Source of the DNA: Haliotis rufescens
Taxonomy: Eukaryota
Assembly: GCF_023055435.1 (NCBI RefSeq)
Contig: NW_025964372.1
Span: 7,688,001 to 7,752,000 of the forward strand
DNA: 64,000 nt
Direction: 5' to 3'
Shown here: piece after piece, positions 20,555 to 64,000 of the stretch
Numbering within the stretch: the stretch's first letter is position 1
How the letters are laid out: every line of letters begins with the position of its first letter
Made by a program: the position numbers and the translations under genes
The notes under the pieces: generated by a model
Seen by the model: the letters and a program-made list of their open reading frames with translations, nothing else
The model's database searches: none
Told to the model about the DNA's origin: nothing

Positions 20555-23500
20555 CCCTGAGGCTCAGGTGTGTTGCCAACACCATGATGTTAAACAGATA
20601 GCCTTAAGGCACTGGTGTGTTGCCAACACCATGATGTTTAACAGATACCCTTGAGGCACGGGTGTGTTGCCAACACCATGATGTTAAACAGATAGCCTTA
20701 AGGCACTGGTGTGTTGCCAACACCATGATGTTAAACAGATAGCCTTGAGGCACTGGTGTGTTGCCAACACCATGATGTTTAACAGATAGCCTTGAGGCAC
20801 GGGTGTTGCCAACACCATGATGTTTAACAGATACCCTTGAAGGCACGGGTGTTGCCAACACCATGATGTTTAACAGATAGCCTTGAGGCACTGGTGTGTT
20901 GCCAACACCATGATGTTTAACAGATACCCTTGAGGCACGGGTGTGTTGCCAACACCATGATGTTTTACTTATACCCTCGAGGCTCAGGTGTGTTGCCAAC
21001 ACCATGATGTTAAACAGATAGCCTTGAGGCACTGGTGTGTTGCCAACACCATGATGTTAAACAGATAGCCTTGAGGCACTGGTGTGTTGCCAACACCATG
21101 ATGTGTTACTTATACCCTCGAGGCACTGGTGTGTTGCCAACACCATGATGTTAAACAGATAGCCTTGAGGCACTGGTGTGTTGCCAACACCATGATGTTT
21201 AACAGATAGCCTTGAGGCACGGGTGTTGCCGCCAACACCATGATGTTTAACAGATAGCCTTGAGGCACGGGTGTTGCCGCCAACACCATGATGTTAAACA
21301 GATAGCCTTGAGGCACGGGTGTGTTGCCAACACCATGATGTTAAACAGATAGCCTTGAGGCACTGGTGTGTTGCCAACACCATGATGTTAAACAGATAGC
21401 CTTGAGGCACAGGTGTTGCCGCCAACACCATGATGTTAAACAGATAGCCTTGAGGCACGGGTGTGTTGCCAACACCATGATGTTAAACAGATAGCCTTGA
21501 GGCTCTGGTGTGTTGCCAACACCATGATGTTAAACAGATAGCCTTGAGGCACTGGTGTGTTGCCAACACCATGATGTTTAACAGATAGCCTTGAGGCACG
21601 GGTGTGTTGCCAACACCATGATGTTTAACAGATAGCCTTGAGGCACGGGTGTGTTGCCAACACCATGATGTTTAACAGATAGCCTTGAGGCACGGGTGTG
21701 TTGCCAACACCATGATGTTTTACTTATACCCTTGAGGCTCTGGTGGTGTGCCAACACCATGATGTTTAACAGATAGCCTTGAGGCACTGGTGTGTTGCCA
21801 ACACCATGATGTTTAACAGATAGCCTTGAGGCACGGGTGTGTTGCCAACACCATGATGTTAAACAGATAGCCTTGAGGCACGGGTGTTGCCAACACCATG
21901 ATGTTTTACTTATACCCTTGAGGCACTGGTGTGTTGCCAACACCATGATGTTTAACAGATAGCCTTGAGGCACGGGTGTTGCCGCCAACACCATGATGTT
22001 TAACAGATACCCTTGAGGCATGGGTGTGTTGCCAACACCATGATGTTTTACTTATACCTTTGAGGCACTGGTGTGTTGCCAACACCATGATGTTTAACAG
22101 ATACCCTCGAGGCACTGGTGTGTTGCCAACACCATGATGTTTAACAGATAGTCTTGAGGCACTGGTGTGTTGCCAACACCATGATGTTTAACAGATAGCC
22201 TTGAGGCTCTGGTGTGTTGCCAACACCATGATGTCAAACAGATAGCCTTGAGGCTCTGGTGTGTTGCCAACACCATGATGTTAAACAGATACCCTTGAGG
22301 CACGGGTGTGTTGCCAACACCATGATGTTTTACTTATACCCTTGAGGCACTGGTGTGTTGCCAACACCATGATGTTTAACAGATACCCTTGAGGCACGGG
22401 TGTGTTGCCAACACCATGATGTTTAACAGATAGCCTTGAGGCACGGGTGTGTTGCCAACACCATGATGTTTAACAGATAGCCTTGAGGCACTGGTGTGTT
22501 GCCAACACCATGATGTTTAACAGATACCCTTGAGGCACGGGTGTGTTGCCAACACCATGATGTTTTACTTATACCTTTGAGGCACTGGTGTGTTGCCAAC
22601 ACCATGATGTTAAACAGATAGCCTTGAGGCACTGGTGTGTTGCCAACACCATGATGTTTAACAGATACCCTCGAGGCACTGGTGTGTTGCCAACACCATG
22701 ATGTTAAACTGATACCCTCGAGGCACTAGTGTGTTGCCAACACCATGATGTTTTACTTATATCCTCGAGGCACTGGTGTGTTGCCAACACCATGATGTTT
22801 AACAGATAGCCTTGAGGCACTGGTGTTGCCAACACCATGATGTTTAACAGATAGCCTTGAGGCACTGGTGTGTTGCCAACACCATGATGTTAAACAGATA
22901 GCCTTGAGGCACTGGTGTGTTGCCAACACCATGATGTTAAACAGATACCCTTGAGGCACTGGTGTGTTGCCAACACCATGATGTTTAACAGATAGCCTTG
23001 AGGCACTGGTGTGTTGCCAACACCATGATGTTTAACAGATACCCTCGAGGCACTGGTGTGTTGCCAACACCATGATGTTTAACAGATACCCTTGAGGCAC
23101 TGGTGTGTTGCCAACACCATGATGTTAAACAGATACCCTTGAGGCACTGGTGTGTTGCCAACACCATGATGTTTTACTTATACCCTTGAGGCACTGGTGT
23201 GTTGCCAACACCATGATGTTAAACAGATAGCCTTGAGGCACTGGTGTGTTGCCAACACCATGATGTTAAACAGATAGCCTTGAGGCACTGGTGTGTTGCC
23301 AACACCATGATGTTAAACAGATAGCCTTGAGGCACTGGTGTGTTGCCAACACCATGATGTTAAACAGATAGCCTTGAGGCACTGGTGTGTTGCCAACACC
23401 ATGATGTTTAACAGATAGCCTTGAGGCACGGGTGTTGCCAACACCATGATGTTTAACAGATACCCTTGAGGCACGGGTGTGTTGCCAACACCATGATGTT

Positions 23501-24700
23501 AAACAGATAGCCTTGAGGCACTGGTGTGTTGCCAACACCATGATGTTAAACAGATAGCCTTGAGGCACTGGTGTGTTGCCAACACCATGATGTTAAACAG
23601 ATAGCCTTGAGGCACTGGTGTGTTGCCAACCCCATGATGTTAAACAGATAGCCTTGAGGCACTGGTGTGTTGCCAACACCATGATGTTTAACAGATAGCC
23701 TTGAGGCACGGGTGTTGCCAACACCATGATGTTTAACAGATACCCTTGAGGCACGGGTGTGTTGCCAACACCATGATGTTTTACTTATACCCTTGAGGCA
23801 CTGGTGTGTTGCCAACACCATGATGTTTAACAGATAGCCTTGAGGCACGGGTGTTGCCGCCAACACCATGATGTGTTACTTATACCTTTGAGGCACGGGT
23901 GTGTTGCCAACACCATGATGTTTAACAGATAGCCTTGAGGCACTGGTGTGTTGCCAACACCATGATGTTAAACAGATAGCCTTGAGGCTCTGGTGTGTTG
24001 CCAACACCATGATGTTTAACAGATAGCCTTGAGGCACTGGTGTGTTGCCAACACCATGATGTTAAACAGATAGCCTTGAGGCACTGGTGTGTTGCCAACA
24101 CCATGATGTTAAACAGATAGCCTTGAGGCACTGGTGTGTTGCCAACACCATGATGTTAAACAGATAGCCTTGAGGCACGGGTGTGTTGCCAACACCATGA
24201 TATTAAACAGATAGCCTTGAGGCACGGGTGTGTTGCCAACACCATGATGTTTTACTTATACATTGAGGCTCTGGTGGTGTGCCAACACCATGATGTTAAA
24301 CAGATAGCCTTGAGGCACTGGTGGTGTGCCAACACCATGATGTTTAACAGATAGCCTTGAGGCTCTGGTGGTGTGCCAACACCATGATGTTTAACAGATA
24401 GCCTTGAGGCACTGGTGGTGTGCCAACACCATGATGTTTAACAGATAGCCTTGAGGCTCTGGTGGTGTGCCAACACCATGATGTTTAACAGATACCCTTG
24501 AGGCTCTGGTGGTGTGCGAACACCATGATGTTTAACAGATACCCTTGAGGCTCTGGTGGTGTGCCAACACCATGATGTTTAACAGATACCCTTGAGGCTC
24601 TGGTGGTGTGCCAACACCATGATGTTTAACAGATACCCTCGAGGCACTGGTGGTGTGCCAACACCATGATGTTTAACAGATACCCTTGAGGCTCTAGTGG
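20555..24700. repeat. 47-bp satellite array (CCTTGAGGCACTGGTGTGTTGCCAACACCATGATGTTTAACAGATAG), ~88 copies, 4.1 kb
   Basis: Period of 47 with 45/48-bp variants. Confidence 0.97.
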
Positions 24701-26384: not shown

Positions 26385-27725
26385 ACCAGTGCCTCAAGAC
26401 AGATGGAAGCACCATGATGTTGATATTGTCCTGACCAGTGCCTCAAGACAGACGGAAGCACCATGATGCTGATATTGTCCGACCAGTGCCTCCAGACAGA
26501 CGGAAGCACTATGATGTTGATATTGTCCTGACCAGTGCCTCAAGACAGACGGAAGCACCATGATGGTGATATTGTCCTGACCAGTACCTCAAGACAGACG
26601 GAAGCACCATGATGTTGATGTTGTCCAGACCAGCGCCTCCAGACAGACGGAAGCACAATGATATTGATATTGTCCTGACCAGTGCCTCAAGACAGACGGA
26701 AGCACCATGATGTTGATATTGTCCTGACTAGTGCCTTAAGACAGACGGAAGCACCATGATGTTGATATTGTCCTGACTAGTGCCTTAAGACAGACGGAAG
26801 CATTATGATGTTGATATTGTCCTGACCAGAACCTCAAGACAGACGGAAGCACCATGATGTTGATATTGTCCTGACTAGTGCCTCAAGACAGACGGAAGCA
26901 CCATGATGGTGATATTGTCCTGACCAGTACCTCAAGACAGACGGAAGCACCATGATGTTGATGTTGTCCTGACCAGCGCCTCCAGACAGACGGAAGCACA
27001 ATGATGTTGATATTGTCCTGACCAGCGCCTCCAGACAGACGGAAGCACCATGATGTTGATATTGTCCTGACCAGTGCCTCAAGACAGACGGAAGCACCAT
27101 GATGTTGATATTGTCCTGACTAGTGCCTTAAGACAGACGGAAGCACCATGATGGTGATATTGTCCTGACCAGTACCTCAAGACAGACGGAAGCACCATGA
27201 TGGTGATATTGTCCTGACCAGTACCTCAAGAGAGACGGAAGCACCATGATGTTGATATTGTCCTGACCAGCGCCTCCAGACAGACTGAAGCACCATGATG
27301 TTGATATTGTCCTGACTAGTGCCTCAAGACAGCTGGAAGCACCATAATGTTGATATTGTCCTGACTAGCGCCTCAAGACAGACGGAAGCACCATGATGTT
27401 GATATTGTCTTGACTAGTGCCTCAAGACAGACGGAAGCACTATGATGTTGATATTGTCCTGACCAGCGCCTCAATACAGATGGAAGCACCATGATGTTGA
27501 TATTGTCCTGACCAGTGCCTCAAGACAGACGGAAGCACCATGATGTTGATATTGTCCTGACCAGTGCCTCAATACAGACGGAAGCACCATGATGTTAATA
27601 TTGTCCTGACCAGCGCCTCAATACAGACGGAAGCACCATGATGGTGATATTATCCTGACCAGCGCTTCAATACAGAAGGAAGCACCATGATGTTGATATT
27701 GTCCTGACTAGTGCCTCAATATAGA
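26385..27725. repeat. 49-bp minisatellite (GACCAGTGCCTCAAGACAGACGGAAGCACCATGATGTTGATATTGTCCT), ~27 copies
   Basis: Period of 49 read directly. Confidence 0.97.
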
Positions 27726-28815
27726 CAGATGACATTGTATGTACTTATATTGCGCGAAAATCCTTCTCACATACTTTCATCAATTAGAAAACTGCCAGTA
27801 CGAATGTCATATACATATTCAGGTAATTATGAATTACTTTCCAATCCCAGTTCCTTGTATAATTTATAACATATGTAGCTTGATTGAACATTTCATGGCC
27901 TTAGTTATGACAGCTGATTTAAATAATTTCACATTATTATAACATTTACAGCACTCAAAATTCTTCATTGATTTATATTGCATGAATTCCAGTGAAGGAA
28001 GCTGATGTTATCTCCTCCCTAACTGACTGATTCTGTGAACACTCTCGTTCCTGTATCATTGCTTCATATTATAAAGTGTGTCACTTGTGCCCCATTGAAA
28101 TCCTTCAGGCATATGTTAACACATTTGTATCGTTTGAAAAAGGCCCTCATACTAAATAACTTTCACTTGTCAATATTGGATACACATTCCCGAGGTGTTT
28201 GCAGCATGGTGTCTTGCTGGATGCTGTCCAATGACCGCCTCTGTTGTGTATGTTCCTATATACTCAAAGCAGCCTTATGTACGACTCAGTGTTTAGGGGG
28301 GGTTCGTGAGTTAAAACAGCATACTGTACTTTGTATATTGTTTCCAATTCCTAAACATCTTAGTAAAACATATCATAAAACATCACAAGTATCAGTATCA
28401 GTTTAGATAGCCTCAAAAAGCAAGGCAAAATGTCATAAAAATATAACCAAATCTGAAGATTGAATACCTCAAAAAAGGCTAAAATATCATAATTGTCAAA
28501 TAAAACAGCATACAAATTTTACATTTATCAAATTCACTGCTTCACTTATAATTGTATTAAAAGATATCTTACCCTTTACGTTGATCTATACGTTGCTCGT
28601 AATTTTTTCCTGAGAAATTAGCTACCCCTTGTAACATTTAACCCCAAATTTTGTCAGGTAGCATTAAATATCATTTCAACTTTGAAGACCTAAACAGACA
28701 CACTTTAACTGGAAAATGTTGCCAAATGTTATATGTGAAATATTAGTACACCTAAACTGCCAAAAGAACTAAAGTAGTATTTTCGAAATACTTGTGTTGT
28801 GTCTTCATAAGTTGT

Positions 28816-31759: not shown

Positions 31760-34185
31760 TACCATATATAACAGAAAAGACTGGACCCTATGATACATGT
31801 TGGATGTTATGGTACATAGTATGAACTGGACCCTATGCTTCACAGCACTAGCTGGATCCAATGGTACACGGAATATGAAGAACCCCATGGTACATGTTGG
31901 ATGTTATGGTACAAATTATAGGCTGGACCCTATGCTTCACAGTACTGGCTGGATCCAATGGTACACGGAATATGAAGAACCCCATGGTACATGTTGGATG
32001 TTATGGTACAAATTATAGGCTGGACCCTATGCTTCACAGTACTGGCTGGATCCAATGGTACACGGAATATGAAGAACCCCATGGTACATGTTGGATGTTA
32101 TGGTACAAATTATAGGCTGGACCCTATGCTTCACAGTACTGGCTGGATCCAATGGTACACGGAATATGAAGAACCCCATGGTACATGTTGGATGTTATGG
32201 TACAAATTATAGGCTGGACCCTATGCTTCACAGTACTGGCTGGATCCAATGGTACACGGAATATGAAGAACCCCATGGTACATGTTGGATGTTATGGTAC
32301 AAATTATAGGCTGGACCCTATGCTTCACAGTACTGGCTGGATCCAATAGAACATGGAACATGAAGAACCCCATGGTACATGTTGGATGTTATGGTACACA
32401 GTATAGGCTGGACCCTATGCTTCACAGTACTGGCTGGATCCAATGGTACATGGAATATGAAGAACCCCATGGTACATGTTGGATGTTACGGTACACAGTG
32501 TAGGCTGGATCCAATGGTACATGGAATACGAAGAACCACGTGGTACATGTTGGATGTTATGGTACACAGTATAGGCTGGACCCTATGCCTCACAATACTG
32601 AATGGATCCAATGGTACATGGAACATGAAGAACTTTCTGGTACATGTTAAATGTTATGGTACATAGTATGAACTGGACCCTATGCTTCACAGTACTGGCT
32701 GGATCCAATGGTACATGGAACATGAAGAACCTTATGGTACATGTTGAATGTTATGGTACAAATTATAGGCTGGACCCTATGCTTCACAGTACTGGCTGGA
32801 TCCAATGGTACATGGAACATGAAGAACCTTATGGTACATGTTGAATGTTATGGTACAAATTATAGGCTGGACCCTATGCTTCACAGTACTGGCTGGATCC
32901 AATGGTACATGGAACATGAAGAACATGTTGGATGTTATGGTACACAGTATAGGCTGGACCCTATGCCTCACAGTACTGGCTGGATCCAATGGAACATGGA
33001 ACATGAAGAACCTTATGGTACATGTTGGATGTTATGGTACACAGTATAGGCTGGATCCAATGGTACATGGAATATGAAGAACCTTATGGTACATGTTGGA
33101 TGTTGGTACACAGTATAGGCTGGACCCCATGCCTCACAGTACTGGCTGGATCCAATGGTACTTGGAACATGAAGAACTTTCTGGTACATGTTGGATGTTA
33201 TGGTACACAGTATAAACTTGACCCTATGCTTCACAGTACTGGCTGGATCCAAAGGTACACGGAATATGAAGAACTTTCTGGTAGATGTTGGATGTTATGG
33301 AACACAGTATAGGCTGGACCCAATACCTCACAGTACTGGATGGATCCAGTGGTACATGGAACATGAAGAACCTTATGGTACATGTTGGATGTTATGGTAC
33401 ACAGTATAGGCTGGATCCAATGGTACATGGAATATGAAGAAATTTCTGGTACATGTTGGATGTTATGGTACAAAGTACTGGCTGGATCCAATGGTACATG
33501 GAACATGAAGAACTGTCTGGTACATGTTGGATGTTATGGTACAAAGTACTGGCTGGATCCAATGGTACATGGAACATGAAGAACCTTATGGTACATGTTG
33601 GATGTTATGGTACACAGTATAGGCTGGACCCCATGCCTCACAGTACTGGCTGGATCCAATGGTACATGGAATATGAAGAAATTTCTGGTACATGTTGGAT
33701 GTTATGGTACAAAGTACTGGCTTGATCCAATGGTACATGGAACATGAAGAGCTTTCTGGTACATGTTGGATGTTATGGTACACATAATAGGCTGGACCCT
33801 ATGCTTCACGGTACTAGCTGGATCCAATGGAACATGGAACATGAAGAACCTTATGGTACATGTTGGATGTTGGTACACAGTATAGGCTGGACCCCATGCC
33901 TCACAGTACTGGCTGGATCCAATGGTACATGGAATATGAAGATATTTCTGGTACATGTTGGATGTTATGGTACAAAGTACTGGCTGGATCCAATGGTACA
34001 TGGAACATGAAGAACTGTCTGGTACATGTTGGATGTTATGGTACAAAGTACTGGCTGGATCCAATGGTACATGGAACATGAAGAACTGTCTGGTACATGT
34101 TGGATGTTATGGTACACAGTATAAACTGGACCCCATGCCTCACAGTACTGCCGGATTCAATGGTACATGGAACATGAAGAACAGT
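31760..34185. repeat. 97-bp compound minisatellite with shorter deletion variants, 2.4 kb
   Basis: Identical ORFs recur at 97-bp offsets (31894, 31991, 32088). Confidence 0.96.
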
Positions 34186-42047: not shown

Positions 42048-42721
42048 CTCCTATCTCTTGTAAACGATTACAGGGGTAAATTACATGTTTCTGTTTACGG
42101 AGACGTATTACATTATTTTGCAATAATCACACCTTGCTACATCACGCAGTGTATTTTTATACGACTTTACTTTAACATCTTCCGCCTGTAGGACATGCCG
42201 ACATGCATACAGCACGAGTGACATGACTGCCTTGTAGTCATATAGCAGGTCAACAACGAGAACCTACACAGTGGTCTATTTCGGCGGATTACAGCTGATT
42301 AGCTATCTATCGTGCATTTTGTTATTCTGCCAAGTAGGATTGTTTCCCAGGCATGTGTCACGTTGTCCAGATGAAGACTAGTGTCACACCGATGCATCGC
42401 TTGTGTCACCGGGGGATTGCCTAAAAGTCGGGCCGGGCCGGGCCAAAGTTGTATTGGCTAATTACTCCATTATCGGCAACCATACCTACATATCATTGAT
42501 GCAACACACACATGACATTAATGAACAATCATCAACCAAGAACGTGCACCATAATTAAGTGATTCGGACTAAATCACTTGAAAACCAGAAAGTGGAGCTG
42601 TGTGTAAGCGTCGCTGATCTAGGTAACATGTAAAAGGGCAATCGTTAAACGAAATAGGATTTGAAACGTATCAATACTTCTAGCTATCGTGATGCAAATT
42701 TCCATCTGTCGGCATAGCGTT

Positions 42722-43453
42722 TACATTATAGGACAGTACTGTATCTAAGTAAATACCACTTAATAATGTCACTGTTCATCGTATTTAAAGCAGACACGTT
42801 GGTTAAAGTAGACCTCTTCTCCCCATACTCTCAACAGTCTCACAAGTGTTCGGTCCGACTTGGCCCGGGCTGTCAAAATCAACTTTAAACACACACATGT
42901 ATCAGCTATAGAGTAGTATTATATCTACCTATATACCACTTTATAATGTCACAGTACATCGCATTGAAATACAACTGATCCGTTAAAGTCAAACACTTTT
43001 ACTGTATTTTCTTAAGAAAATCTTTGTCAGAAGTGTTCGTTCCGACTTGGCCCGGGCTGTCAAAATCAACTAAACCTAACAGATGTAACATCAAATGGTT
43101 TCACATCTATCAACTAGTATTATATCTACCTATATATCACTTTGTAGTGTCACAGATCACGGTATTTAAAGAAAACAAGGTGCTCAAAGTGAAGCCCTTT
43201 TCCCTCTCCATTCTCAACATAGTCTCCATCAAAAGTGTTTGGCTTGTGTTTGGTCCGACTTGGTCCGGGCTGTCAAAATCAACTTTACACACAGAGATGT
43301 ATCATCAAATGTGTTTACATCTATAGATTAGCATTATTTCTGCCTTTATACTACTTTATAATGTCTCAGATAGCGGTATTTAAAGAGAGTAAGGAGCTCA
43401 AAGTGAAGCCCTTTTCCCTCTACATTCTGAACATAGACTCTATCAGAAGTGTA
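42722..43453. repeat. ~190-215-bp tandem repeat, left block (diverged copies)
   Basis: Unit contains TCCGACTTGGCCCGGGCTGTCAAAATCAAC. Confidence 0.9.
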
Positions 43454-43575
43454 TGACTCAATTCTCATATTGTTTCCACATCATTAAAATACACTTGTTT
43501 TAAAATAAACTTGTTATAATGTGCCTTCTCTGTATGGTGAACGTACTTATGTGTCTTGCACTTATTGCGCATATA

Positions 43576-45047
43576 AACTGACGTCCAAAAGAAACTTTAC
43601 CAGAGTTTGAAATCACTCTTGCTCAAAAACAACAAATCATACATGCATGAAGTAAAGTGTATTGAGAAGATCAATATATCAACATAATCAACACTGAAAA
43701 TGACAATCATACCGCGACCGAGAATGACGTAAGAGCCCTCCAAAGTTTGGTGTGGTACAAAACTCGAGCTTTCAGAATCATGGACAATAGGAAGAGTACA
43801 TAAACAATCGCTCACGTTCAAAAACAAGTCATTAGTAGCGTGTGTGACCACCAAATGCCTCAATACACGCAAAAACTCTTCGACGCACAGAAAAAGTCAG
43901 TCGTCTGATGAGGTCACGTGGGATTTGACGCCATTCTTCTTGGAGGGCCAAGATCAGTTCTTGTCGGTTGGCTGGAGAGTGTGGTCGTTGTCGAACACGA
44001 CGATCCATCAAGTCCCTGAGGTGTTCTATGGGGGACATGTCGGGTGAGCGTGCAGGCCACGGCAGGACGTTGACGTTTTTGGCTGCGAGGAAGTTAGTGA
44101 CAATTTTGGCTGTATGGGCTCTAGCGTTGTCATGCTGATAAATGACACCACGTGGCTGCTATTTCATTATCCATGTAACGCTGAGCTGTCAAGTTTCCGT
44201 CAACGATGACCAGCGGTGTCCTCACCATATGGTACGACCTCCTGCACGCAACACGCCGCCGTTCGTTCACCCCTTCGGCGGTAATTACGTTGTCTTCCAT
44301 CAGCCCTAAACATACAGAATCGACTTTCGTCAGTGAAGACAACCCTCTGCCAGTCACGTCGTTGCCAACGTCGTACAGTCCGGGCCCATCTCAATCGCAG
44401 ACGACGATGTTGCGCTGTCAATAGCTGTCCTCTGTATGGTCTAAAAGCCCTGATTATATGAGCCCTGAGTCTCCTGGCCACTGTCTGTCGACTAACCCTG
44501 TGACCTAAGGCATTTGTCGCCGATGACGTCACTGTCAGGAAGCGATTTCGGAGGTGCAAGGTACGCAAGTACCGGTCATCATGGAGCGTGGTCACCCTTG
44601 GTCTGCCTGTTCTTGGCCTGTCAGATGTCCGCCCTGTCTGTCTGTAACGTTGCATCAAGTTGGTAACGGCAACACAGGAGCAACCGAAGGTTCGTGCAAT
44701 ATGGTCGTGGGTGGCTCCCATCTGTACCATACCCAAGGCTCGTTCACGTTGTTCGACTGTGAGTCGTGGCATTTCTTTTGTGTGTTTTTTATCACTGTGG
44801 ATGTCTGACTTGCCGTTGCTATCGTTTTATACCCTTACCCGCACGTTCATTTGCAGTTGTCCGTGGTGCACGTGTTTTTCACTTTTTCGCGTGTTATCTC
44901 GCAAACATGTAACAGACGATTAACATTTTCTGCATACACTATTGTTGTACTTATGTTATGTGTTTTAGATAGACTTCATCGAAAAAAATGTATGCTTTGT
45001 CTGAAATTTATATTTTCAGTTGGTAAAGTTTCTTTTGCACGTCAGTT
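43576..45047 (-). mobile_element. Tc1-family transposon, 1472 bp, disrupted transposase (44772 to ~43832)
   Basis: 27-bp TIR AACTGACGTsCAAAAGAAACTTTACCA with TA TSD. Paired-like HTH, GRPRVTT, VFTDES, QHDNA and SPDMSPIEH motifs; a deletion/frameshift lies near 44230. Confidence 0.93.
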
Positions 45048-45162
45048 TATTTTGTAGTTTATGATAGTGTAATATTGCTACTGTTTCTTCATGGAATGTT
45101 ACGCAATACTTATCTCATCTTCAACATCTTTGTTGTATGATAGTTTGTTACAGTTCTGTACG

Positions 45163-45426
45163 GGGGCACGGTTGGCCAAAGTCGCCTTATACGCTGCAAT
45201 TCGCTATGCAGAGTGGTGTCCCTTGGGCACGCCAGAAACCTATGACAGTGTGTTCGAATCCCTGTTCGCCCCGATTATGTTGTCAGCACTCTACCCGTGC
45301 TCATGGGTTTCATGGGTCTAATACCTGCATCACTTCGGGCTTTCCTCCCACATCAAGCTGATACGCCGTGATATAACTGGAATTATAATATTCAAAGCGG
45401 CGTTAAACCCATCTCACTCACTCACT
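45163..45426 (+). mobile_element. SINE family C copy
   Basis: GTTCGAATCC B-box, GGCTTTCCTCCCAC, shared tail, (CACT)n. Confidence 0.75.
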
Positions 45427-46129
45427 TCTCTTGTGTACGGTTCCGTTTGGTTAGCTGGGTTTGTGTTGTGATTACCTCCGGCTTAAATTTAAAGTATGTG
45501 AATGTATCATGCAACCGAATTATTTTTCAGGAGAATAATTGCAAACTAAGGGCCAACATGTTGAATTGCAATGTATCCAGAAGCAAAGAACTTATACGGG
45601 TGTGTAATCTCTGCAGGAAGTTAAAACAGCTGTCAATACAATAAACCATGCAGAACCATTAACCGCCGGATGAAACGGTATGAATCATATTTTACATACA
45701 GTGAACTACTTGAAACTGTGCTCAAATCTGCACAGCAAGCACTATACATGTGATTGTGAAGACAACTTATTACAAATCTCTTATATCAAACCTGTTGTTT
45801 TACATGTGTTGTTTATTGAACAAAGTCATGCTTCATAGAAGCCTGGTATTTAATCGTGTTGAACAATAATTTGCAATAGCAGTGTGAAGGGAGAACGACT
45901 GATCGCGCGTTACATGCTTGACCTTAATTCCTCCCCGGAACCATTCTCGCTGGCGGCCTGAATAACATACGATACATTGCAAAGGTAGTGCGCAAAAGAG
46001 TTTTTTGGGTAAGGGAGATAATTACTCACTCTCAGTGATACAGCTTGAATAAGATACGATGTACAGCATTGCAAGGTCACGCGTGATTAAGCTGTATACT
46101 GCGCATACAGCTAAAGGAGATAATCGCTC

Positions 46130-46330
46130 AATGCGCAATAGGTCGATTTGTTAGTAAATTTATTGAACCTAATAAAGTCGATATATTTAATTTAATATCA
46201 TAGATACAAATATGAAATTTTGGAGTCCGATAGTCACATGTTGTCGTTGTACAAAGGCAGTGAAAATTGTTCATTGTCACGTCACATAAGGCCACAAGGG
46301 TACGCTGACCGCCCTTGGCAGCAATCACGC
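46130..46330 (-). mobile_element. Tc1 3'-end fragment
   Basis: Similar to 62590-62780; encodes VIAAKGG. Confidence 0.7.
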
Positions 46331-46332
46331 TC

Positions 46333-46535
46333 AATCACCAGCTGTCAATATACAAAACAGAATAATACATCAAGATGACAGTTTTCATATAAAGATTAAG
46401 TATTTCTAAGCAACTTAAAGATACATATATCTAGATATTGTACACATCTTTAAGTTGCTTAGAAATTCTTAATCGTTACATTGAAACTGCCATCTTGATG
46501 TATTATAATGTATTGTATATTGACAGCTTGTGATT
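46333..46535. repeat. ~200-bp inverted repeat (foldback)
   Basis: Arms AGCTGTCAATATACAA..CATCAAGATG..TTTCTAAGCAACTTAAAGAT and their reverse complements. Confidence 0.9.
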
Positions 46536-46963
46536 AATTGTTACCAGATGGCTGCAGCTGGGGTAGCAGACGACACACTTTCCAACAATGGGGAACAGGG
46601 TAAAAATATGAGTAGGCTGGTTATCATCGAGCATCGAGTTGCAGTTTGTACTCCAAGCTTGCAACACCTCTCCAGCCTTCCAAGCCTTCCAAGCCAGCAC
46701 AGCTTCGCCTGATAGTCAGCCCAAGGAGAACCCCACGGTAATTATAAACTCACACTTCCAACCTTTATCCCAATCACTACTCCACACAAATACCCAAGCC
46801 ACGTTCAAAACCTTCATCCTCAAAACAAACATCCTCTCTCTCTCTCTCTCAATAAACCTAAACACCCCACTTAAAGCAACAAAACACTTAAATCTAACAG
46901 CATCTCGGCTTGGACACTCGCCCTGTGCTGACGTGTCCTTCCAAATCGCAAACCCACGCTACG

Positions 46964-47654
46964 ATGAGAGACCTCGCCAAGTCACTCCCGAGAGAGCTAG
47001 TTGCCACCCTGGAGCCCCTGCTGGCTTACCGGGTTGGCGACTACTCTCTCAAGACGTCATACAAGTCGAAGACCTCAACCCTCTCCATCTCCTTTGACCT
47101 AGGTCAGAGGAAGAGGCCTCCGGGCATGGGAGGAAGAAGAGAAAGAGGAGAGACATCCCCTCACCTGAACCTTCCCCCCGACCACCCACCGCCACCAGAC
47201 TCACAGACCACGGAGCCCGCCCTAAACGACTCCAGCGTCCAAGACCATCGAACCAGAGCCCCCAACCCTCTGCGAAAGTCAGACCCAGACCACCCCGGTC
47301 GAGGTCCCCCCTAGGGTAAAGAGCTTCAGAGACGTCTTAGTGGAAAAATCAGATATCCTTATCAACCACTGTAAGACTCACCCGGACCTCCATGCTGCGC
47401 TCATCTCCACCCCCAAGGAGCAGCTCTACGCCATGCTAGGAGTCCATCTCGCCATGGTTCACAAGCGGTCGGGTCAGGCGTACGATATCACAAGCTTCAC
47501 GGACTTGTACCATTTCTTCCAAAGCAATGGCGTACCAACCTCCGACCACTTCATCGCAAATACCGCCGCCCTCCTTGCCAAGAGTCTCTATCAGAATCCC
47601 GACCCCCAGGAAGAGAAGTTGACCAAGAGACTCCTTCAAAGACGCCGCAGCTAG
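46964..47654 (+). pseudogene. Intronless orphan ORF (~230 aa if one frameshift near 47225 is repaired), probably mobile-element cargo or ORF1-like
   Basis: GC-rich island with overlapping open frames: MRDLAKSLPRELVATLEPLL... and ...CESQTQTTPVEVPPRVKSFRDVLVEKSDIL...LLQRRRS*. Confidence 0.5.
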
Positions 47655-47685
47655 ACTTCTAGCCATCACGCTTGCCAGCCACGAC

Positions 47686-48477
47686 GGTCCGGGCTGTCAA
47701 AATCAACTTTAAACACACAAATGTATCATCAAATGTGTTTACATCTATAGACTAGTATTATATCTACCTATATACCACTTTATAATGTCACAGTACATCG
47801 TATTTAAAGAAAACAAGGTGCTCAAAGTGAAGCCCTTTTCCCTCTACACTCTCAACATAGTCTCTATCAGAAGTATTTGGCTTGTGTTGGGTCCGACTTG
47901 GTCCGGGCTTTCAAAGTCAACTTTAAACACACAAATGTACCATCAAATGTGATTACATCTATAGACAAGTATTATGTCTACCTATATACCACTTTGTAGT
48001 GTCACAGATGACGGTATTTAAAGAAAACAAGGTGCTCAAAGTGAAGCCCTTTTCCCTCTACACTCTCAACATAGTCTCTATCAGAAGTGTTTGGCTTGTG
48101 TTGGGTCCGACTTGGCCCGGGCTGTCAAAATCAACTTAAACATCACATATGTAACATCAAATGTGATTACATCTATAGACAAGTATTATGTCTACCGATA
48201 TACCACTTTGCAGTGTCACAGATCACGGTTATTTAAAGAAAACAAGGTGCTCAAAGTGAAGCCCTTTTCCCTCTACATTCTCAACATAGTCTCTATCAGA
48301 AGTGTTTGGCTTGTGTTGGGTCCGACTTGGCCCGGGCTGTCAAAATCAACTTAAACATCACAGTTGTAACATCAAATGTGATTACATCTATAGACAAGTA
48401 TTATGTCTACCTAAATACCACTCTATAGTGTCTCAGATCGCGGTATTTAGAGAAAACAAGGAGCTCAAAGTGAAGCA
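47686..48477. repeat. ~214-bp tandem repeat, right block (~3.7 copies)
   Basis: Period of 214-215 (47892, 48106, 48321); same unit as 42722-43453. Confidence 0.93.
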
Positions 48478-48750
48478 TCTGTGTGTAATCGGTTTAATTG
48501 TACGGTATACATTGTAGACAGACAGACAATAACTTATTAGTGTCTCACTTCTGTACATACATACAACAGCTTTGTACAAATAAACACTGATAGAATGTAC
48601 AGAACCATTCAATAGAATTATGAGAGACTATTAACAGAATATCCCACTGCTAAGTATATGATAAATTGTTAAATTAACATTAGATAAGGTTGAGAATTAA
48701 TTGTGTTTTTTTTCAATACATCTTAGACTGGTTAGTCGTCTGCTCAATGA

Positions 48751-50330
48751 TACTTACTTACTTATATTGGAGATTTAACGTGCGCTTTCCGACTGCAAGC
48801 GTATGTCGCACACGGGCCCGGCCAGGCCATTTAATGTGTTTCCGAAAAGGGGAAAAGTGAGTTTGTGCAACCCAAGAGGGGGGCTTTAGGGGTTGCTTAT
48901 ATAGTAATTTTGAAATTTTGAGATTTGGAATGAATGCCAAGAGTGGGTGGAGGACGAACTAAGGGAGCCGTGTGTGTTGGGTGGTTGTTAGATTAGGTAG
49001 TTTTGGTTTTAATATTTTACTTGGGGTTTAAATGCGACTAATTAGTCCTGTTTTAATTAGGTATATGCCTAAGGCTTTGAATTTTTCTAAATTATTTTGT
49101 GGGTTTAGGATTGATTCTAGTCTAAGTGCGGTTTTAAGATTTAGGGTAGTCTGTAGTGTTGTTCGGTGTGTTTGGTTGTGTGTGCAGTGAATGAGTACGT
49201 GTTCTGGTGTTTCTTGTTGTTTGCAATGTGGGCAGTTTCCTGTTGTGTGTAGATTAGCTATTTTACGGTGATTATTTAGTTTGGTGTGGCCTGTTTGTAG
49301 TTTAGTAATAATTCTGTCGATTTTTTTGGATGGGTGTAGTATTTTTGGTTTACCTAGGTTTTTTTTAGTTTTTTCCTGATTGGCTATTTGAGTTTTGGTA
49401 TATATTTTGCCATTTTTTGTTGATTTTTTGTTTCGTGACACTTTTGATTTCTGATTTTGAGCTGGGTAAGTTTATTTCTGGGAGTTTAAGGGATAATTTT
49501 GCTGCTTTATCTGCGTTTTCATTTCCAAAGATTCCAACGTGGGCGGGGATCCAAATGAACTCTATTTGTTTACCTGCCTTAGTTAAGTTGTTTGAGCTTT
49601 TGAGTATTTGATTTATTAGTTTGGGGCGGTGTTTAATGTTTTTATTTTTGAGGGCTTGTAGTCCACTGAGGGAGTCGGTTAGGATGAGGATTTTTTGGTG
49701 TTTTTTTAGGTTGCTGATTGTGTAGTGCTGAGGCCATGCCCATGAGTTCGGCCGTGAATATGGATTGGTTGTTTGGGAGTCGGTAAGATTGGGTGTTTTT
49801 GGTTGGTTGAGCGATGTGGACTACGAAACCTGTGTGTTTTGAGATCGGATCTGAGGAACCGTCTGTGTATATGTGACACCAATTTGGCTAATTTTCGTGT
49901 ATGTATGCTAGTGTGGTGGTTTTAGCGATGTTAGGATCGGTCTGTTTATTTAGTGTATCGGCTAGTGTTGTGTCTATTTTTGATATTTTAAGTTTTGGAC
50001 TGAAGATATTGGATGATTTATTGTTTTGTTTAAGATTATTTATTTTGTGTTCATTTAGGTAATTGGTTATTCTTAGGGAAATTGGAGCAAGTAGTGGATT
50101 TTTCCGGGTTAGGGCTTGGTGTCTAGGGCTAATATTGGTTATTAAGTTTTCGATAAGAGAGTTTGATTGGGACGCGGCCCAGAAGTTTAGGGTAAGTTGT
50201 TCCCTACGTAGTTTAAGTGGCATTTCTCCTGTTAAGGCCTGGGGTGAGGTGGAGGAGGTGCCATGTTGAGTTCCTGATACTGGATTGAGTCTAGTTTTTT
50301 AATGAGAGAGTTGTTTAGGGTGTCGTAAAT
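48751..50330 (-). mobile_element. 5'-truncated non-LTR retrotransposon of the I/Nimb/Ingi group (RNase H + CCHC), frameshifted
   Basis: MPLKLRR, HIYTDGS, AELM, LTDSLS, WIPAHVGIFGNENADKAAK, KLQTGH, CPHCKQQETPEHVLIHC; 3' stem-loop and (TAAG)n tail. Confidence 0.9.
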
Positions 50331-50561
50331 GGCACGAGGACTCACGGTATGTAGTCATAATTATGAGTTTATTACATTGTTGAAGATGCATTTTGATTCA
50401 AACTCAATTAAATAAGCAAAACTATACGTTTGTGGACATTTGCAATCTGCCTAGATATGCACGTTTCGTTTTATTATTCTGCAATCCACTTTTAGTATTA
50501 CCCGCTGGCCCGGCCCGGCCCGACTTTTCTTGGCCTGACTTTTAGGCAATCCCGTCACCGG

Positions 50562-50651
50562 GTGAGTGAGTATGGTTCTACGTCGCTGTTAGCAATACTC
50601 CAGCAATATCACGGCGGGGGACACCAAAATGGGCTTCACGCATTGTACCCA
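50562..50651 (-). mobile_element. SINE family A, 3' half
   Basis: Reverse complement of 8255-8345. Confidence 0.85.
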
Positions 50652-51032: not shown

Positions 51033-51494
51033 CATCTTCCCGAGGCAAGGGAGTTAACTGACTGTAAAAGAACAGTTTCCACCCTGGCCGAACTAGGCTG
51101 GAATTTCTTGGCTCGATCTTAGCGCCACCAGTGGCTATCATAAGTTGTTACCCTCCTATTAACCAATCAGATTCCATCTCTCATGTCACTTGCATTTGCT
51201 TCAAACAAACATGGCGGTGCCCAGTCAAGACGATCTGATCGATGATCAAGATATAAATAGTAATAAAACATACCTTAACCTCGCAAAGTGCATCTAATCG
51301 CGTGAGCACCTTGATTAAAAACTTTAAAATATTTAGAAAATATCTTTTGACGCTCAGTTGACAGTACACATCTTATGCAAATCTTGCAGTCGACCGAAAT
51401 CTGCACGTTGAAATCCATGTTGTTTACGATCCGGATCTCGATTTCGTTCCGCGAATTTGATTGGACTATGCATAGACTCGGAGTCCAGCCAAAA
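51033..51494. mobile_element. Second copy of the 16669 MULE-like element, lacking the right TIR
   Basis: Colinear with 16669-17113. Confidence 0.85.
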
Positions 51495-54836: not shown

Positions 54837-55850
54837 TCAGTAGTGCGCAATGCCGCCACGATTTGTCAAACATTCTTTCACTTGACGAGGCATACTGCGT
54901 ATGAGTCTCCCTGTGGCAACTTGAGGGTGTCCGCCCCACTCCTTTTGCATCGCCTGGCCAAGGTCAGCCAACGTGGTCGGCGGCCTATGACGTTGACACA
55001 CGCATCGTCCTATCATGTCCCAGACATGTTTAACGGGGAAAAGGTCTTGGCTCATTGCTGGCCATGACATTCTATGGACGTTGTGCTGCTGGAGGTGAGC
55101 GTTGGCGATTCGTGCACAGTGAGGACAGGCGTTGTCGTGCTGAAAGGACGAAACCTCGACAAACACGCCTTGCAAACGGGACAACAAAGGATATTAGTAT
55201 GTTGTCCTGATAGTCCAATGACCCTTCTTACACAATATGGAGTTGGAGTCGCATAGTCATAGTGATGCCGCCCCACACCACATCCGATGAACCACCAAAT
55301 ATGTCAAGAAGTCTCAGGGTGACATTGACTTGACGTTCATGTCGACGTAGCTAGCCACGGCCGCTCCTGTCGAGGAAGTGAATCGAGACTCATCTGAAAT
55401 CATGACACAGGACCAGCGACGATTACCCCCGTCTCGACGTTGTGTACGCCATTAACGTCTGTTGGCGTTATGACGATTTGTAAGGGGCGGCACAACACGT
55501 GGCCGTCGAGCATGGAGTTGAGCTGCATGTCGACGATTTCTAATCGTCTGACCCGTAACTCGTAATCCACGTTTGCAGCAATTTAATTCGCCGTTTGAGC
55601 TCGATATCGTAGAGCCTGGCTTCGGATCAATTGATCCTGTAGTCTTGTTGACCTGGGACGCCCTAGAACTGGGCAAACATTTTGTGTCTGTGTACTTGTT
55701 CCATAGTCTGCTAATCACAAACTGAAACATTGAACGTAGTGGCCACTGCACGCTGCCTTTGTGAGGTCCCAGCGCGCCAGTGTGCCTTTGACGCCGTCCT
55801 TGTTCACACACAACAATGAATGGAACCAGGTAAACCACAGCTGTGTGATA
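54837..55850 (-). mobile_element. Degenerate Tc1-like transposase relic
   Basis: QTIRNR-HAAQLHARRP, ISDESRF, VWGGI, FQHDNACPH, WPAMSQDL-PVKHVWD; multiple frameshifts, TIRs not found. Confidence 0.85.
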
Positions 55851-59764: not shown

Positions 59765-60742
59765 ATGGTTATGCTCAGTGTTTGACGAGGTACGTTGAAT
59801 GGTGTCATATTGCAGATATGTTTGATGAGGTACAATGAGTTGTATCATATTGTAGTTATGCTCAGTGTTTGACGAGGTACGTTGAATGGTGTCATATTGC
59901 AGATATGTTTGATGAGGTACACTGAGTTGTGTCATATTGCAGATATGTTTGATGAGGTACAATGAGTTGTATCATATTGTAGTTATGCTCAGTGTTTGAC
60001 GAGGTACGTTGAATGGTGTCATATTGCAGATATGTTTGATGAGGTACACTGAGTTGTGTCATATTGCAGATATGTTTGATGAGGTACAATGAGTTGTATC
60101 ATATTGTAGTTATGCTCAGTGTTTGACGAGGTACGTTGAATGGTGTCATATTGCAGATATGTTTGATGAGGTACAATGAGTTGTATCATATTGTAGTTAT
60201 GCTCATTGTTTGACGAGGTACGTTGAATGGTGTCATATTGCAGATATGTTTGATGAGGTACAATGAGTTGTATCATATTGTAGTTATGCTCAGTGTTTGA
60301 CGAGGTACGTTGAATGGTGTCATATTGCAGATATGTTTGATGAGGTACACTGAGTTGTGTCATATTGCAGATATGTTTGATGAGGTACAATGAGTTGTAT
60401 CATATTGTAGTTATGCTCAATGTTTGACGAGGTACGAGTTGTATCATATTGCATAAGTGCTCAATGTTTGACGAGGCACAGTGAGTTGTATCATATTGCA
60501 GCTATGCTCAATGTTTGACGAGGTACGAGTTGTATCATATTGTAGCTATGCTCAATGTTTGACGAGGTACGAGTTGTATCATAGTGTAGTTATGCTCAAT
60601 GTTTGACGAGGCACAGTGAGTTGTATCATATTGTAGTTATGCTCAATGTTTGACGAGGTACGAGTTGTATCATATTGCATATGTGCTCAATGTTTGACGA
60701 GGCACAGTGAGTTGTATCATATTGTAGCTATGCTCAATGTTT
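59765..60742. repeat. Higher-order minisatellite of 47-bp and 40-bp related monomers (87- and 127-bp periods)
   Basis: TTTGACGAGG recurs at offsets 87, 127, 127, 87, 87, 127. Confidence 0.93.
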
Positions 60743-60942
60743 GTTGCACGGAAACTCTCACATGCAACACATCGCGATGCGTATCCGTTTCGCAAGGTTT
60801 CTTAACGAAACTCTTCCTCGTGTCAAATATCTGGTTTTGTTGGTTAAGCTGAATATGGAGCTAATATCGATACAAACTCCCAGCCCGCAACCCGCACATA
60901 CATCTGCTTCACATGTTCCAGATACCAATACACACATTTACC

Positions 60943-61341
60943 GTCAAGCATCATATATGAACCAGTTCGCATACTCCTGTGTGACAATGGTTCTCAATAC
61001 CAAGACCTGTCAAGCATCATGTATGAACCAGTTCGCATATTCCTGTGTGACAATGGCTCTCAATACCAAGACCTGTCAAGCATTATGTATGAACCAGTTC
61101 GCATACTCCTGTGTGACAATGGTTCTCAATACCAAGACCTGTCAAGCATCATGTATGAACCAGTTCGCATACTCCTGTGTGACAATGGTTCTCAATACCA
61201 AGACCTGTCAAGTGTTATGTATGAACCAGTTCGCATACTCCTGTGTGACAATGGTTCTCAATACCAAGACCTGTCAAGTGTTATGTATGAACCAGTTCGC
61301 ATACTCCCGTGTGACAATGGTTCTCAATACCAAGATCTGTC
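60943..61341. repeat. 66-bp minisatellite, 6 copies
   Basis: 22-aa repeat in spurious ORFs. Confidence 0.95.
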
Positions 61342-61615
61342 TAGAGCGACCACCCGTAGAGCTGGAAGGTCCGGGGTTCGATCCCCGGTCGCGTCATAAC
61401 AAAATAATTTAAAAGATGGTACTTGTTGTTACCCTGCCTAGCGATCGTCATTAAGGATTAAAACAAGGACTAGGCGGCTAGGAGTCAGTATACTGTGTCT
61501 GAGTGGGGTATTCATGTTACCTGCATGGTATATCAGGTAACTCAACTGCGGCATGGTATCTCAGTGGGCTGGCACTGAAGAAATCGGCATTAGTCCAGAC
61601 TAGCACTATTTTAAA
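61340..61615 (+). mobile_element. SINE family D copy with tRNA-like head
   Basis: GGTTCGATCCCC B-box; body matches 9470-9700. Confidence 0.75.
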
Positions 61616-61988
61616 AAACCTAAAAAACTTTTAGGTCAAGCGGTGGTCGTGTTTTTTCAGGTGAATAACTCTAAAAGCACACGGAAACGTCTCGTCTTAA
61701 CCTGTAGGGCACATCTTTCCCCATTGTCACCTTTACCCTCGTGTTTCCTGAATCGGGAACTTCTTTCACCCGGAAACCCGCAAGGAACTCACCACAGTTT
61801 AAACACCGTGCGTATTGTCCTCCATACCTTCATAAACAGTAACGACTGATTAGGATGTAAATCTTTTCAACGAGGGAGGAATGCAGTTATACATAGAACA
61901 TGTTGTTAGATCCTTTCCTGTCACACAACGGTTGTATTGTTAAAATGTATTATACTTATTCGAAAACTTTGATTAAAATAAAATAAAA

Positions 61989-62163
61989 CAGCAAACTACG
62001 GTTATAACGAACACGCTTATAACGAACTAACGGATATAACGAACTAACTTTTTAGTCCCGACCATATGCTGTAGTTATGCTGTATATATGCTTATAACGA
62101 ATTACCATTATAACGAACTAAAATTAGTAGTCCCTTTGAGTTCGTTATAACCGTAGTTTACTG
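61989..62163. mobile_element. Tigger/pogo-type MITE, second copy
   Basis: Near-identical to 55984-56158. Confidence 0.9.
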
Positions 62164-62572
62164 TAATATTTCTTTCGAAATGGAATTAAATAATTTAAAT
62201 ATGCCTTCAATTTTCAAGTGTTTAGATATTTCACAAGGATTTTTGCTCAATTATTAAAGGAATAAAACGAAGCCATATTTGAAACACACACACAAGACTA
62301 AGCATCTTGTAAATTAAACCTTATATCGGTTATAGTCAAGGTATAAAACGACTGAAATTTTCACTTAGGCAATTTACAAAACGCTTACATATTTCATTCA
62401 TTTTAGGAAGCCTTTTTAAACTTATATATATGTTCTAGTCAATCTGTCAAATTAAATACAGGTTTTTCAGTCGATTTGTAAAATGATCTTAATATTTTTA
62501 AATTGCCTAAGTGATTCACCTTTGAAACACATTGACTGAAACATGTGTACGTATATATACCTAGAACCAATA

Positions 62573-63255
62573 CACTCTTCAAAAAAAGAAACGCAGAGGT
62601 AGATTTTGAGTAAATTTATTGTACCTTATAAAATCGCTATATTTAATTTAATATCATAGATACAAAGATACAATTTTAGAGCTCGATAGTCACATGTTGT
62701 CGTTGTACAAAAGCATTGAAAACTGTTCGTTATCATGTCACATAAGGCCACGTGTGACCGCCCCGGGCAGCAATCACGGCTCTGCATCTCCTCGGCACTG
62801 ACTGGATAAGTGTACGAATTCCGTTCTGCGGAATTCTGCGCCATTCTGCTTGTAACGCCTTGGTCAGTTGTGGGAGTGACTGCGGACTGTCTTCCATCTC
62901 GCCGGTGAAGAAGAAATCGTGATTCATCGCTAAACTACACTCATCTCAAGTTTCTCAAATACCAAGGCTGTAAGGTATGGCACGAACGTTAACGCAAGCG
63001 TCGCTGTCGATGGATCTGCTGCAAAAGAGGGACGATAACTGGTCTTCTGGGTCGGATTCCAGCCTCGCAAAGATGGTTCCTGACAGGGTGCTCCGATATC
63101 CTCCTTAAACCAAGGATGCGTACTGCAGTCTCCGTAGCTGTGGCATTGCGATGACGTAGGTGGAACAGACGAATGTAGCGACTTTTACCGGATTTTTTAT
63201 GTAGTCAGGTTCAATGAACTACATACTACCTGTGCGTTTCGTTTTTGGAAGAGTG
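62573..63255 (-). mobile_element. Internally deleted Tc1 element, 683 bp
   Basis: TIR CACTCTTCmAAAAmGAAACGCAsAGGTAG with TA TSD; remnants ALQAEWRRIPQ...RRCRAVIAARGGHT. Confidence 0.9.
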
Positions 63256-63554
63256 TATGTCTCAACCCATGGTATATTTGCGTGGTTGTCAGCCTGAGGG
63301 GCGTCCACCGCGTACCCGGATACACACGCGCGTGCTGCACCAACCGGAAAGGTCATTGTGACCTAGACATTGAGAAAGGGCCTACCTTTATCTAACATCG
63401 CTGTCATCGGGTGTGCCCTCACGCCCAGACAAGATTCTTATTAATAACTGTCGAGCAGGAAAAATAATATCGTATTCGGTTTATGTCAAGTAGTGAAATT
63501 TTTTTTGAGAAACATGACACACAAGTGCTAGTCATATATTTATACAAACAGAAC

Positions 63555-64000
63555 TCATGGGGCGAGGGTGTTCATGTGTAAACCATGGGACGAGTGTGTT
63601 GATGTGTAAACCATGGGACGAGGGTGTTGATGTGTAAACCATGGGACGAGTGTGTTGGTGTGTAAACCATGGGACGAGGGTGTTGGTTTGTAAACCATGG
63701 GACGAGGATGTTCATGTGTAAACCATGGGGCGAGGGTGTTCATGTGTAAACCATGGGACGAGGGTGTTGATGTGTAAACCATGGGACGAGGGTGTTGGTG
63801 TGTAAACCATGGGACGAGGGTGTTGGTGTGTAAACCATGGGACGAGGGTGTTGGTGTGTAAACCATAGGACGAGGGTGATGGTGTGTAAACCATGGGACG
63901 AGGGTGTTGGTGTGTAAACCATGGGACGAGGGTGTTGATGTGTAAACCATGGGACGAGGGTGATGGTGTGTAAACCATGGGACGAGGGTGTTGGTGTGTA
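63555..64000. repeat. 28-bp minisatellite (TGTAAACCATGGGACGAGGGTGTTGGTG), runs off the window end
   Basis: Period of 28 read directly. Confidence 0.96.

Follow-up and report, generated by a model that had tools for sequence, protein, structure and literature searches.

An 8-kb terminal inverted repeat element lacking a transposase in Haliotis rufescens, and the probable acquisition of its passengers in place

A 64,000-nt stretch of the Haliotis rufescens genome (NCBI RefSeq assembly GCF_023055435.1, contig NW_025964372.1, positions 7,688,001 – 7,752,000 of the forward strand; the whole stretch is referred to here as the window) contains an 8.1-kb element (nt 42405 – 50561) bounded by terminal inverted repeats (TIRs) and an 8-bp target site duplication (TSD). 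This is probably an old TIR element lacking a transposase, with a backbone of about 2.3 kb and a native array of 214-bp units, which took in a 4.2-kb block and a truncated long interspersed element (LINE) in place (Table 1). The ends, the TSD, the passengers, a left junction common to several sequencing runs and a very unequal depth of the parts are directly visible in the data, and the loaded copy is likely to be single, or nearly so, and inert.

Boundaries of the element

The two copies of the TSD, GTCACCGG, are the only ones found in the window when both strands are searched, and the probability of such a duplication arising by chance at a fixed place is 7e-6 to 2e-5. Inside them, the outer 17 bp of the ends form a perfect inverted repeat, followed at the right end by 15 extra bases and then by 16 more matching positions; each of the 33 TIR bases of the left end has its counterpart at the right end, divided over two blocks. 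The 23-bp perfect block found at the TIR ends is expected 6e-5 times in 64 kb. Taking TIRs and TSD together, 41 of 41 paired terminal bases are identical. No second TIR copy occurs in the window at up to four mismatches, save for one AT-rich chance match, and a search of its whole length for inverted repeats of 14 bp flanked by duplications of 8 or 9 bp gave three rows, namely the element itself and two rows of one miniature inverted-repeat transposable element (MITE; nt 16669 – 17197). The boundaries are those of a genuine cut-and-paste transposon copy. Chance or an assembly artefact as the origin of the ends was rejected, as the junction is present in independent runs (see below). Outside the window, the 17-bp TIR has 31 matches among metagenome contigs, none of which extends into either end (at most 9 of the next 20 bases agree) and which are put down to chance, and the 22-bp pattern has no match in viral contigs.

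A first-pass annotation of the window had placed GGG-starting TIRs and an intact 8-bp TSD at exactly these positions, which is confirmed, and all of the passengers it listed (a split 214-bp array, a Tc1, a short interspersed element (SINE), a Tc1 fragment, a foldback, an open reading frame (ORF) and an RNase H LINE fragment) lie where it described them. It was also correct in finding no transposase belonging to the element: neither a DDE_Tnp_IS1595 transposase nor that of a Mutator-like element (MULE) was detected in the 11 ORFs scanned inside it.

Backbone and 214-bp array

Without the 4,227-bp block and the LINE (which ends at about nt 50330), what remains is a backbone of about 2.3 kb, in the order TIR, 275-bp arm, 7 – 8 units of 214 bp, 277-bp segment, arm and TIR. 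Nothing else in the window matches the right arm. The array keeps its phase across the block except for 17 – 23 nt of a unit missing at the break, and the inner units of its two halves are 82 – 91% alike. The array is probably native to the backbone, because the ratio of array to arm depth (7, 7, 10 and 18) compares with 7 – 8 units in the present copy, a paralogous contig passes from 33 bases of the arm into the array, and the units share the motifs CCGACTT/CTTGGCC/GGCCCGG with the right TIR. There are seven plus-strand occurrences of CCGACTT in the window, six in array units and one in the right TIR, and 7-mers shared between TIR and unit exceed shuffles in three of five unit windows (2, 17 and 18 of 1000). 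A test combining two motifs was never equalled in 5000 shuffles; it was picked post hoc and is not relied on. It is likely that the family spreads the 214-bp unit as its own interior and not as cargo, the role previously assigned to the satellite.

Age of the insertion

Of 24 public sequencing runs listed, 18 contain part of the stretch, and seven were compared, all as contigs: X1, X2, X3 and X10 (among which X1, X3 and X10 carry organism label A and come from three studies), X12 (label B), X13 (label C) and X15 (label D). One label A run may be the source of the window itself; those with labels C and D are not. In X1, X3 and X10 a contig comes from the unique flank, crosses the TSD and reaches 15, 28 and 27 bases, respectively, into the TIR, and that of X1 differs from the window at 5 of 404 positions. 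The X13 contig has the flank, the TSD and 16 TIR bases, followed by 14 further letters, and differs from the window by 12 letters and one gap in 379 (3.4%). Three of these 13 differences lie within 23 nt of the TSD, and one G has been lost at the junction. The X15 contig likewise has the flank, the TSD and 16 TIR bases, then 12 further letters, with 5 letters differing. A unique flank followed by at least 15 exact TIR bases is not a chance occurrence. The junction contigs would be short because a contig breaks off within about 30 letters of entering a high-copy repeat, as expected from the way contigs are built.

The left junction is filled in five of the seven runs, under three organism labels, ambiguous in two, and shown to be empty in none; an empty GTCACCGG site, anticipated earlier for other haplotypes, did not appear. 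As the same flank–TSD–TIR junction is common to three labels on flanks that have diverged by 1.2 – 3.4%, the insertion is, judged from these contigs, old, predating a divergence of about 1.7% per lineage, and not recent as the first-pass annotation had supposed. The interior was compared in label A only. Mapping of the whole stretch is dominated by SINEs, and the best 15 of 2471 joints, 40 of 713 letter rows and 32 of about 432,000 pieces were available, from which nothing is inferred about a missing empty-site joint. Two joints that skip the block (nt 43286 – 47731 and 43331 – 47761) are explicable by the likeness of the units and are not counted as proof.

Depth and divergence of the parts

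Depth is expressed as summed contig depth relative to the single-copy flank at nt 42128, and indicates orders of magnitude only. The first 89 bases of the element reach 400 – 1070x, the left arm (at nt 42741) 164 – 960x, the 214-bp array 1700 – 6500x, the Tc1 930 – 5400x and the LINE 140 – 1640x, against 1.5 – 7x for the ORF piece, diverged contigs included. With arms in the hundreds, array and Tc1 in the thousands and the ORF at so low a level, the parts of the element did not spread together, and the loaded form is likely to represent no more than a few copies, against hundreds of ends. Near-identical ORF contigs have depths of 50 and 37 in X1 and 38 in X2, where the flanks are at 33 – 50, corresponding to a single copy.

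The longest paralogous contigs, which lean to divergent copies, differ by 6.0 – 9.0% for the backbone (three pieces), 6.5 – 7.9% for the Tc1 (three) and 6.7 – 10.3% for the LINE (four). The earlier contrast between pristine ends and decayed passengers holds for the 41 paired bases, all perfect, but not for the arms just inside them, which are as diverged from their paralogues as the passengers are. The probability that all 41 paired bases remain identical is 0.27 at 1.6% per lineage, 0.08 at 3% and 0.035 at 4%, while that of an intact TSD alone is 0.5 – 0.8.

Acquisition of the passengers

The block that interrupts the array has no inverted ends of its own and no TSD of 5 nt or more, and consists of a stack of spacer, Tc1, SINE-like repeat, unclassified repeat, Tc1 3' end, foldback and ORF piece. 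The anatomy of the element suggests that a transposase acting in trans would have inserted the backbone, duplicating eight bases, before the lineages behind labels A, C and D parted. A later break in the tandem array may then have been filled with foreign DNA at a cost of 17 – 23 nt, either through a nested insertion and a subsequent deletion, or through gap filling by template switch. The LINE would have inserted beside the array, and the Tc1, SINE and LINE pieces would have decayed together with the element. Filling of an array break after insertion would match the route of single-copy Pack-TIRs described by Tan et al. (2021, PMC8277862), in which capture follows insertion and no transposition is needed. 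Most single-copy Pack-TIRs of animals are reported there to originate through gap filling that follows insertion and costs a median 4.6% of the element.

The two halves might instead derive from two adjacent members of the family, both with a broken array, which flanked 4.2 kb of ordinary repeat-rich host DNA and were mobilised together by their outer ends (composite or macro-transposition). The absence of ends or TSD from the block, its resemblance to bulk repeat-rich DNA, and the low similarity of the two outer left units to the others (64 – 81%) fit such a composite. It would, however, require two precise truncations, and would leave it to chance (about 0.1 – 0.2) that the 214-nt periods of the halves agree to within 17 – 23 nt; the close likeness of the inner units across the halves also counts against it. 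It is considered very improbable.

Several observations weigh against loading in place. The distances between paralogues suggest 3 – 5% divergence per lineage, at which identity of all 41 terminal bases favours a move after loading. The spacer/SINE junction within the block (nt 45090 – 45259) is crossed by an X3 contig with 16 differences in 169 (about 9.5%), and is thus present at a second locus. Near-identical ORF contigs have depths of 45 and 41 in X3 (flanks 6 – 26) and 24 in X10 (flanks 11 – 14), or about 1.6 – 2x, and summed contig depth is no copy number. The 7-mers shared between TIR and unit are not significant in two of the five unit windows, nor is a local alignment of the TIR to the array unit (411 of 2000 shuffles). 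No junction contig has the 31 letters on both sides that the mapping requires. Finally, the X2 contig ends at nt 42414, and that of X12 aligns to nt 42414 and continues for four further letters, which is compatible with an empty allele. An empty allele with the right flank of the window would part after nt 42413; the one-G deletion present in the filled X13 junction would part after nt 42414.

The first two of these points bear on the possibility that loading took place at another site, and that the 8-kb element then came to its present position as a unit in a single move, prior to the separation of labels A, C and D, and multiplied little. Such a move would have reset the TSD and kept working TIRs, and the best argument for it is the identity of the 41 terminal bases when passengers and arms have diverged by 3 – 5% per lineage (P 0.015 – 0.08). 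On the other side, the paralogue distances come from contigs biased towards divergent copies, the probability of unchanged ends at the minimum age and that of an unchanged TSD (given above) are not small, and no second loaded copy is seen. A single old move is regarded as unlikely, and loading in place remains the preferred reading.

The broken gene and its abalone family

The 142-aa ORF, termed an orphan in the first-pass annotation, is the tail frame of a longer gene that three frameshifts and an internal deletion have disrupted; it has relatives in named databases. Relative to XP_048244105.1, about 75 residues are absent and the frame changes three times, while the first 52 residues show 85 – 89% identity to seven H. 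rufescens proteins. The family comprises nine distinct H. rufescens records (P0001, P0002, P0003, P0006 – P0010 and P0012 – P0013; two of these ten ids are variants on one contig) and one from H. cracherodii, on contigs that differ in length, and all true protein relatives found come from Haliotis. Its members have a conserved 52-aa N-terminal domain, a Pro-rich linker, a basic patch (GHGRKKRKRR) and a 110-aa C-terminal domain, and carry misleading annotation names such as 'formin-like' and 'extensin-like'. None of seven members tested has a Pfam match; among 50%-representative protein clusters only P0001 and two spurious repeat proteins were recovered, the ESM Atlas gave no usable cluster, and viral contigs hold no relative of P0013. 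AlphaFold models of the family have low confidence (pLDDT, predicted local distance difference test, 51 and 57), and Foldseek found no match for them in PDB and BFVD at an E value of 0.001. In P0001 and P0003 the C-terminal half of the family is joined to ankyrin repeats, either as a real chimera or as an artefact of the gene models.

The dispersal of the family suggests that it is a mobile-element ORF, and the broken gene is likely to be a passenger, the family spreading by other means than the present element. This bears on the earlier proposal of a recently active, multi-copy Pack-type unit that disperses satellite DNA and an orphan gene. While the intact TSD and TIRs, the X2 and X12 contigs that stop at the junction, the raised depth of the ORF piece in X3 and X10 (and its range of 1.5 – 7x with diverged contigs), and the dispersal of the ORF family over many H. 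rufescens contigs would agree with it, the junction is common to three labels with flanks up to 3.4% diverged, and the ambiguous contigs reach nt 42414, as the one-G deletion of X13 predicts, and not nt 42413, where an empty allele would part. The ORF, moreover, is a broken member of an already dispersed family, and lies two orders of magnitude below the arms in depth. Such a recent unit is scarcely probable. A broader version, in which loaded 8-kb copies of the abalone TIR family hopped as units and provided one route of spread for the Pro-rich gene family and the 214-bp unit, is also improbable, if slightly less so.

Superfamily and comparison with known elements

The element resembles those of Merlin and MULE type, and is filed under none, since it has no transposase. 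The TIR, at 33 – 48 bp with three GGGCC and with AAAAGTC repeats, is inside the MULE range and not typical of it; many MULE ends start with G. The ends of hAT elements usually start with CA or TA, so that the 8-bp TSD agrees with hAT while the GGG ends do not. The Tc1 transposase was rejected as the mover of the element, as it is broken, and as Tc1 elements duplicate TA. The transposase presumed to have acted in trans may tentatively be assigned to Merlin; a MULE enzyme is a more doubtful candidate, and a hAT enzyme an unlikely one.

Merlin/IS1016 elements have 5'-GG ends, TIRs of 24 – 462 bp, an 8- or 9-bp TSD and internal tandem repeats, and families are listed for Aplysia and Crassostrea (PMC8101967). 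The present element shares the GGG-starting TIRs of a length within this range, the 8-bp TSD (known here at one site only) and the internal tandem repeats (PMC8101967), but no DDE_Tnp_IS1595 transposase is known inside it (11 ORFs scanned) or linked to its ends. The Repbase rule asks for the first 11 bases to align with a classified element (one mismatch) and for a TSD of equal length (PMC4455052). The ends fit the published description of Merlin, to which the first-pass annotation had assigned them, without singling it out, as MULEs too have 8-bp TSDs and short subterminal repeats. MULEs have TSDs of 8 – 11 bp, which includes the present length (PMC6446971), and TIRs of 14 – 500 bp, mostly above 100 bp, often with short subterminal repeats (PMC5225508, PMC6446971). 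Animal MULEs and type-2 Foldback elements (Aedes Muta1 and Pack-like derivatives) similarly carry short repeated motifs inside the TIR, and Muta1-type MULEs have non-autonomous copies with mixed interiors (PMC5225508, PMC6446971); the present TIR is shorter than most of theirs, and no MULE transposase is known to be linked to it. MULEs occur in all surveyed mollusc genomes, whereas Merlin is scarce outside cephalopods (PMC10294476).

With single-copy Pack-TIRs (PMC8277862) the element shares a TIR element with TSD, foreign DNA inside, a small loss at the break and, apparently, one or few copies. It differs in that the filler is stacked transposon debris and a broken gene of a multi-copy family, not a traced unique host sequence. 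Pack-TIRs and Pack-MULEs are defined by host sequence of non-transposon origin between the ends that can be traced to a donor locus; in the present element most of the interior is transposon debris, and the ORF piece comes from a dispersed family. Few multi-copy Pack-TIRs, with several loaded copies at unrelated sites and a TSD for each, occur in animals (PMC8277862), and the words 'mollusc' and 'Merlin' are absent from the main text of that paper. In molluscs, pearl/CvA, DTC84 and the central repeats of oyster Helitrons/Helentrons also place short arrays (about six monomers) in a mobile backbone, spread satellite-like units with that backbone, and have arrays that serve as sites of further insertion (PMC5139131, PMC8268682). 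In contrast, the present carrier is bounded by TIRs and an 8-bp TSD instead of rolling-circle ends, and its unit is 214 bp long. Merlin families and the mollusc MITE/Helentron elements spread internal units in a like manner (PMC8101967, PMC5139131, PMC8268682).

Features of the element and its surroundings

Table 1. Parts of the element in order along the window (nt positions; depths relative to single-copy flank)
Feature	Position	Strand	Remarks
Left TSD, GTCACCGG	42405–42412	unstranded	one of only two copies in window
Left TIR, 33 bp, GGG start	42413–42445	+	entered from unique flank by contigs of X1, X3, X10, X13, X15
Left arm of backbone, high-copy repeat	42446–42720	unstranded	summed depth hundreds x single-copy; paralogous contigs 6–9% different
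214-bp array, left half, ~3.6 units	42721–43458	+	two outer units 64–81% alike to rest
Block of stacked repeats interrupting array, 4,227 bp	43459–47685	unstranded	
Decayed Tc1 (DD34E)	43573–45050	-	30-bp TIRs, 29/30; transposase in three frames; Pfam HTH_Tnp_Tc3_2 and DDE_3
SINE-like repeat, (CTCA)n tail, very high copy	45160–45426	+	78–81% to two other window copies
Unclassified mid-copy repeat	45427–46139	unstranded	40–500x single-copy depth at 45660
Second Tc1, 3' fragment	46140–46332	-	85% to 62597–62778 (Tc1 remnant end); reads VIAAKGG
Foldback, 203 bp	46333–46535	unstranded	90-nt arms, 89% complementary
Low-copy piece with broken gene	46611–47685	+	ATG 46964, stop 47652–47654; three frameshifts, internal deletion
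214-bp array, right half, 3.7 units	47686–48476	+	units 86–94% alike
Backbone segment, array to LINE	48477–48753	unstranded	59–420x single-copy depth at 48587
5'-truncated LINE with RNase H	48754–50330	-	(AAGT)n tail at 48754; two frameshifts and in-frame stop; 5' limit approximate
Right arm of backbone, left limit approximate	50331–50505	unstranded	between LINE and TIR
Right TIR, 48 bp (33 matching, 15 extra bases)	50506–50553	-	
Right TSD, GTCACCGG	50554–50561	unstranded	SINE tail directly after

The DD34E spacing of the Tc1 was counted from its translation. The SINE-like repeat has only a 7-nt overlap as flanking duplication, and Rfam gave no match at gathering score anywhere in the window, this repeat included. 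The mid-copy repeat, which has no match elsewhere in the window, carries two GGAGATAAT motifs near its right end, has a paralogue with a boundary at nt 45729 in two runs, and may also include nt 43459 – 43572 and 45051 – 45150. An X2 contig follows the window through the foldback and the next 75 bases and departs from it at nt 46610, which marks the start of the ORF piece. The LINE has no TSD of 7 nt or more.

Around the element, the right TSD abuts a reversed SINE fragment exactly at its (GTGA)n tail (nt 50562 – 50651; 92% to nt 8252 – 8342). The MITE, 529 bp in length, has long TIRs that begin with CATCTTCCCGAGGC, and its 9-bp TSD, GGGTTTCAT, is perfect; a second copy (nt 51033 – 51494, 77% alike) lies 470 bp to the right of the element. 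More Tc1 transposase remnants occur on the minus strand (nt 54837 – 55145 and 62751 – 63186). Tandem repeats include two long minisatellites with related units (47 bp x 88 copies, nt 20548 – 24699; 49 bp x 27 copies, nt 26385 – 27726) and further arrays of 97, 87/127, 66 and 28 bp at nt 31785 – 34182 and 59768 – 64000.

Significance

A published description of this high-copy abalone repeat family was not found in the literature searched, although Repbase, subscription journals and most supplements, which were outside its scope, may contain one. If the multi-copy Pack reading were true, the family would represent an equivalent of Pack-MULEs in molluscs, possibly driven by Merlin. As interpreted here, the element is an ordinary and tidy example of a common non-autonomous transposon, with a built-in tandem array, turning into a sink for later insertions, and it would matter more if loaded copies were present at several sites. 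It draws attention to a high-copy abalone repeat family, and to an abalone-restricted, dispersed ORF family that carries misleading annotation names.

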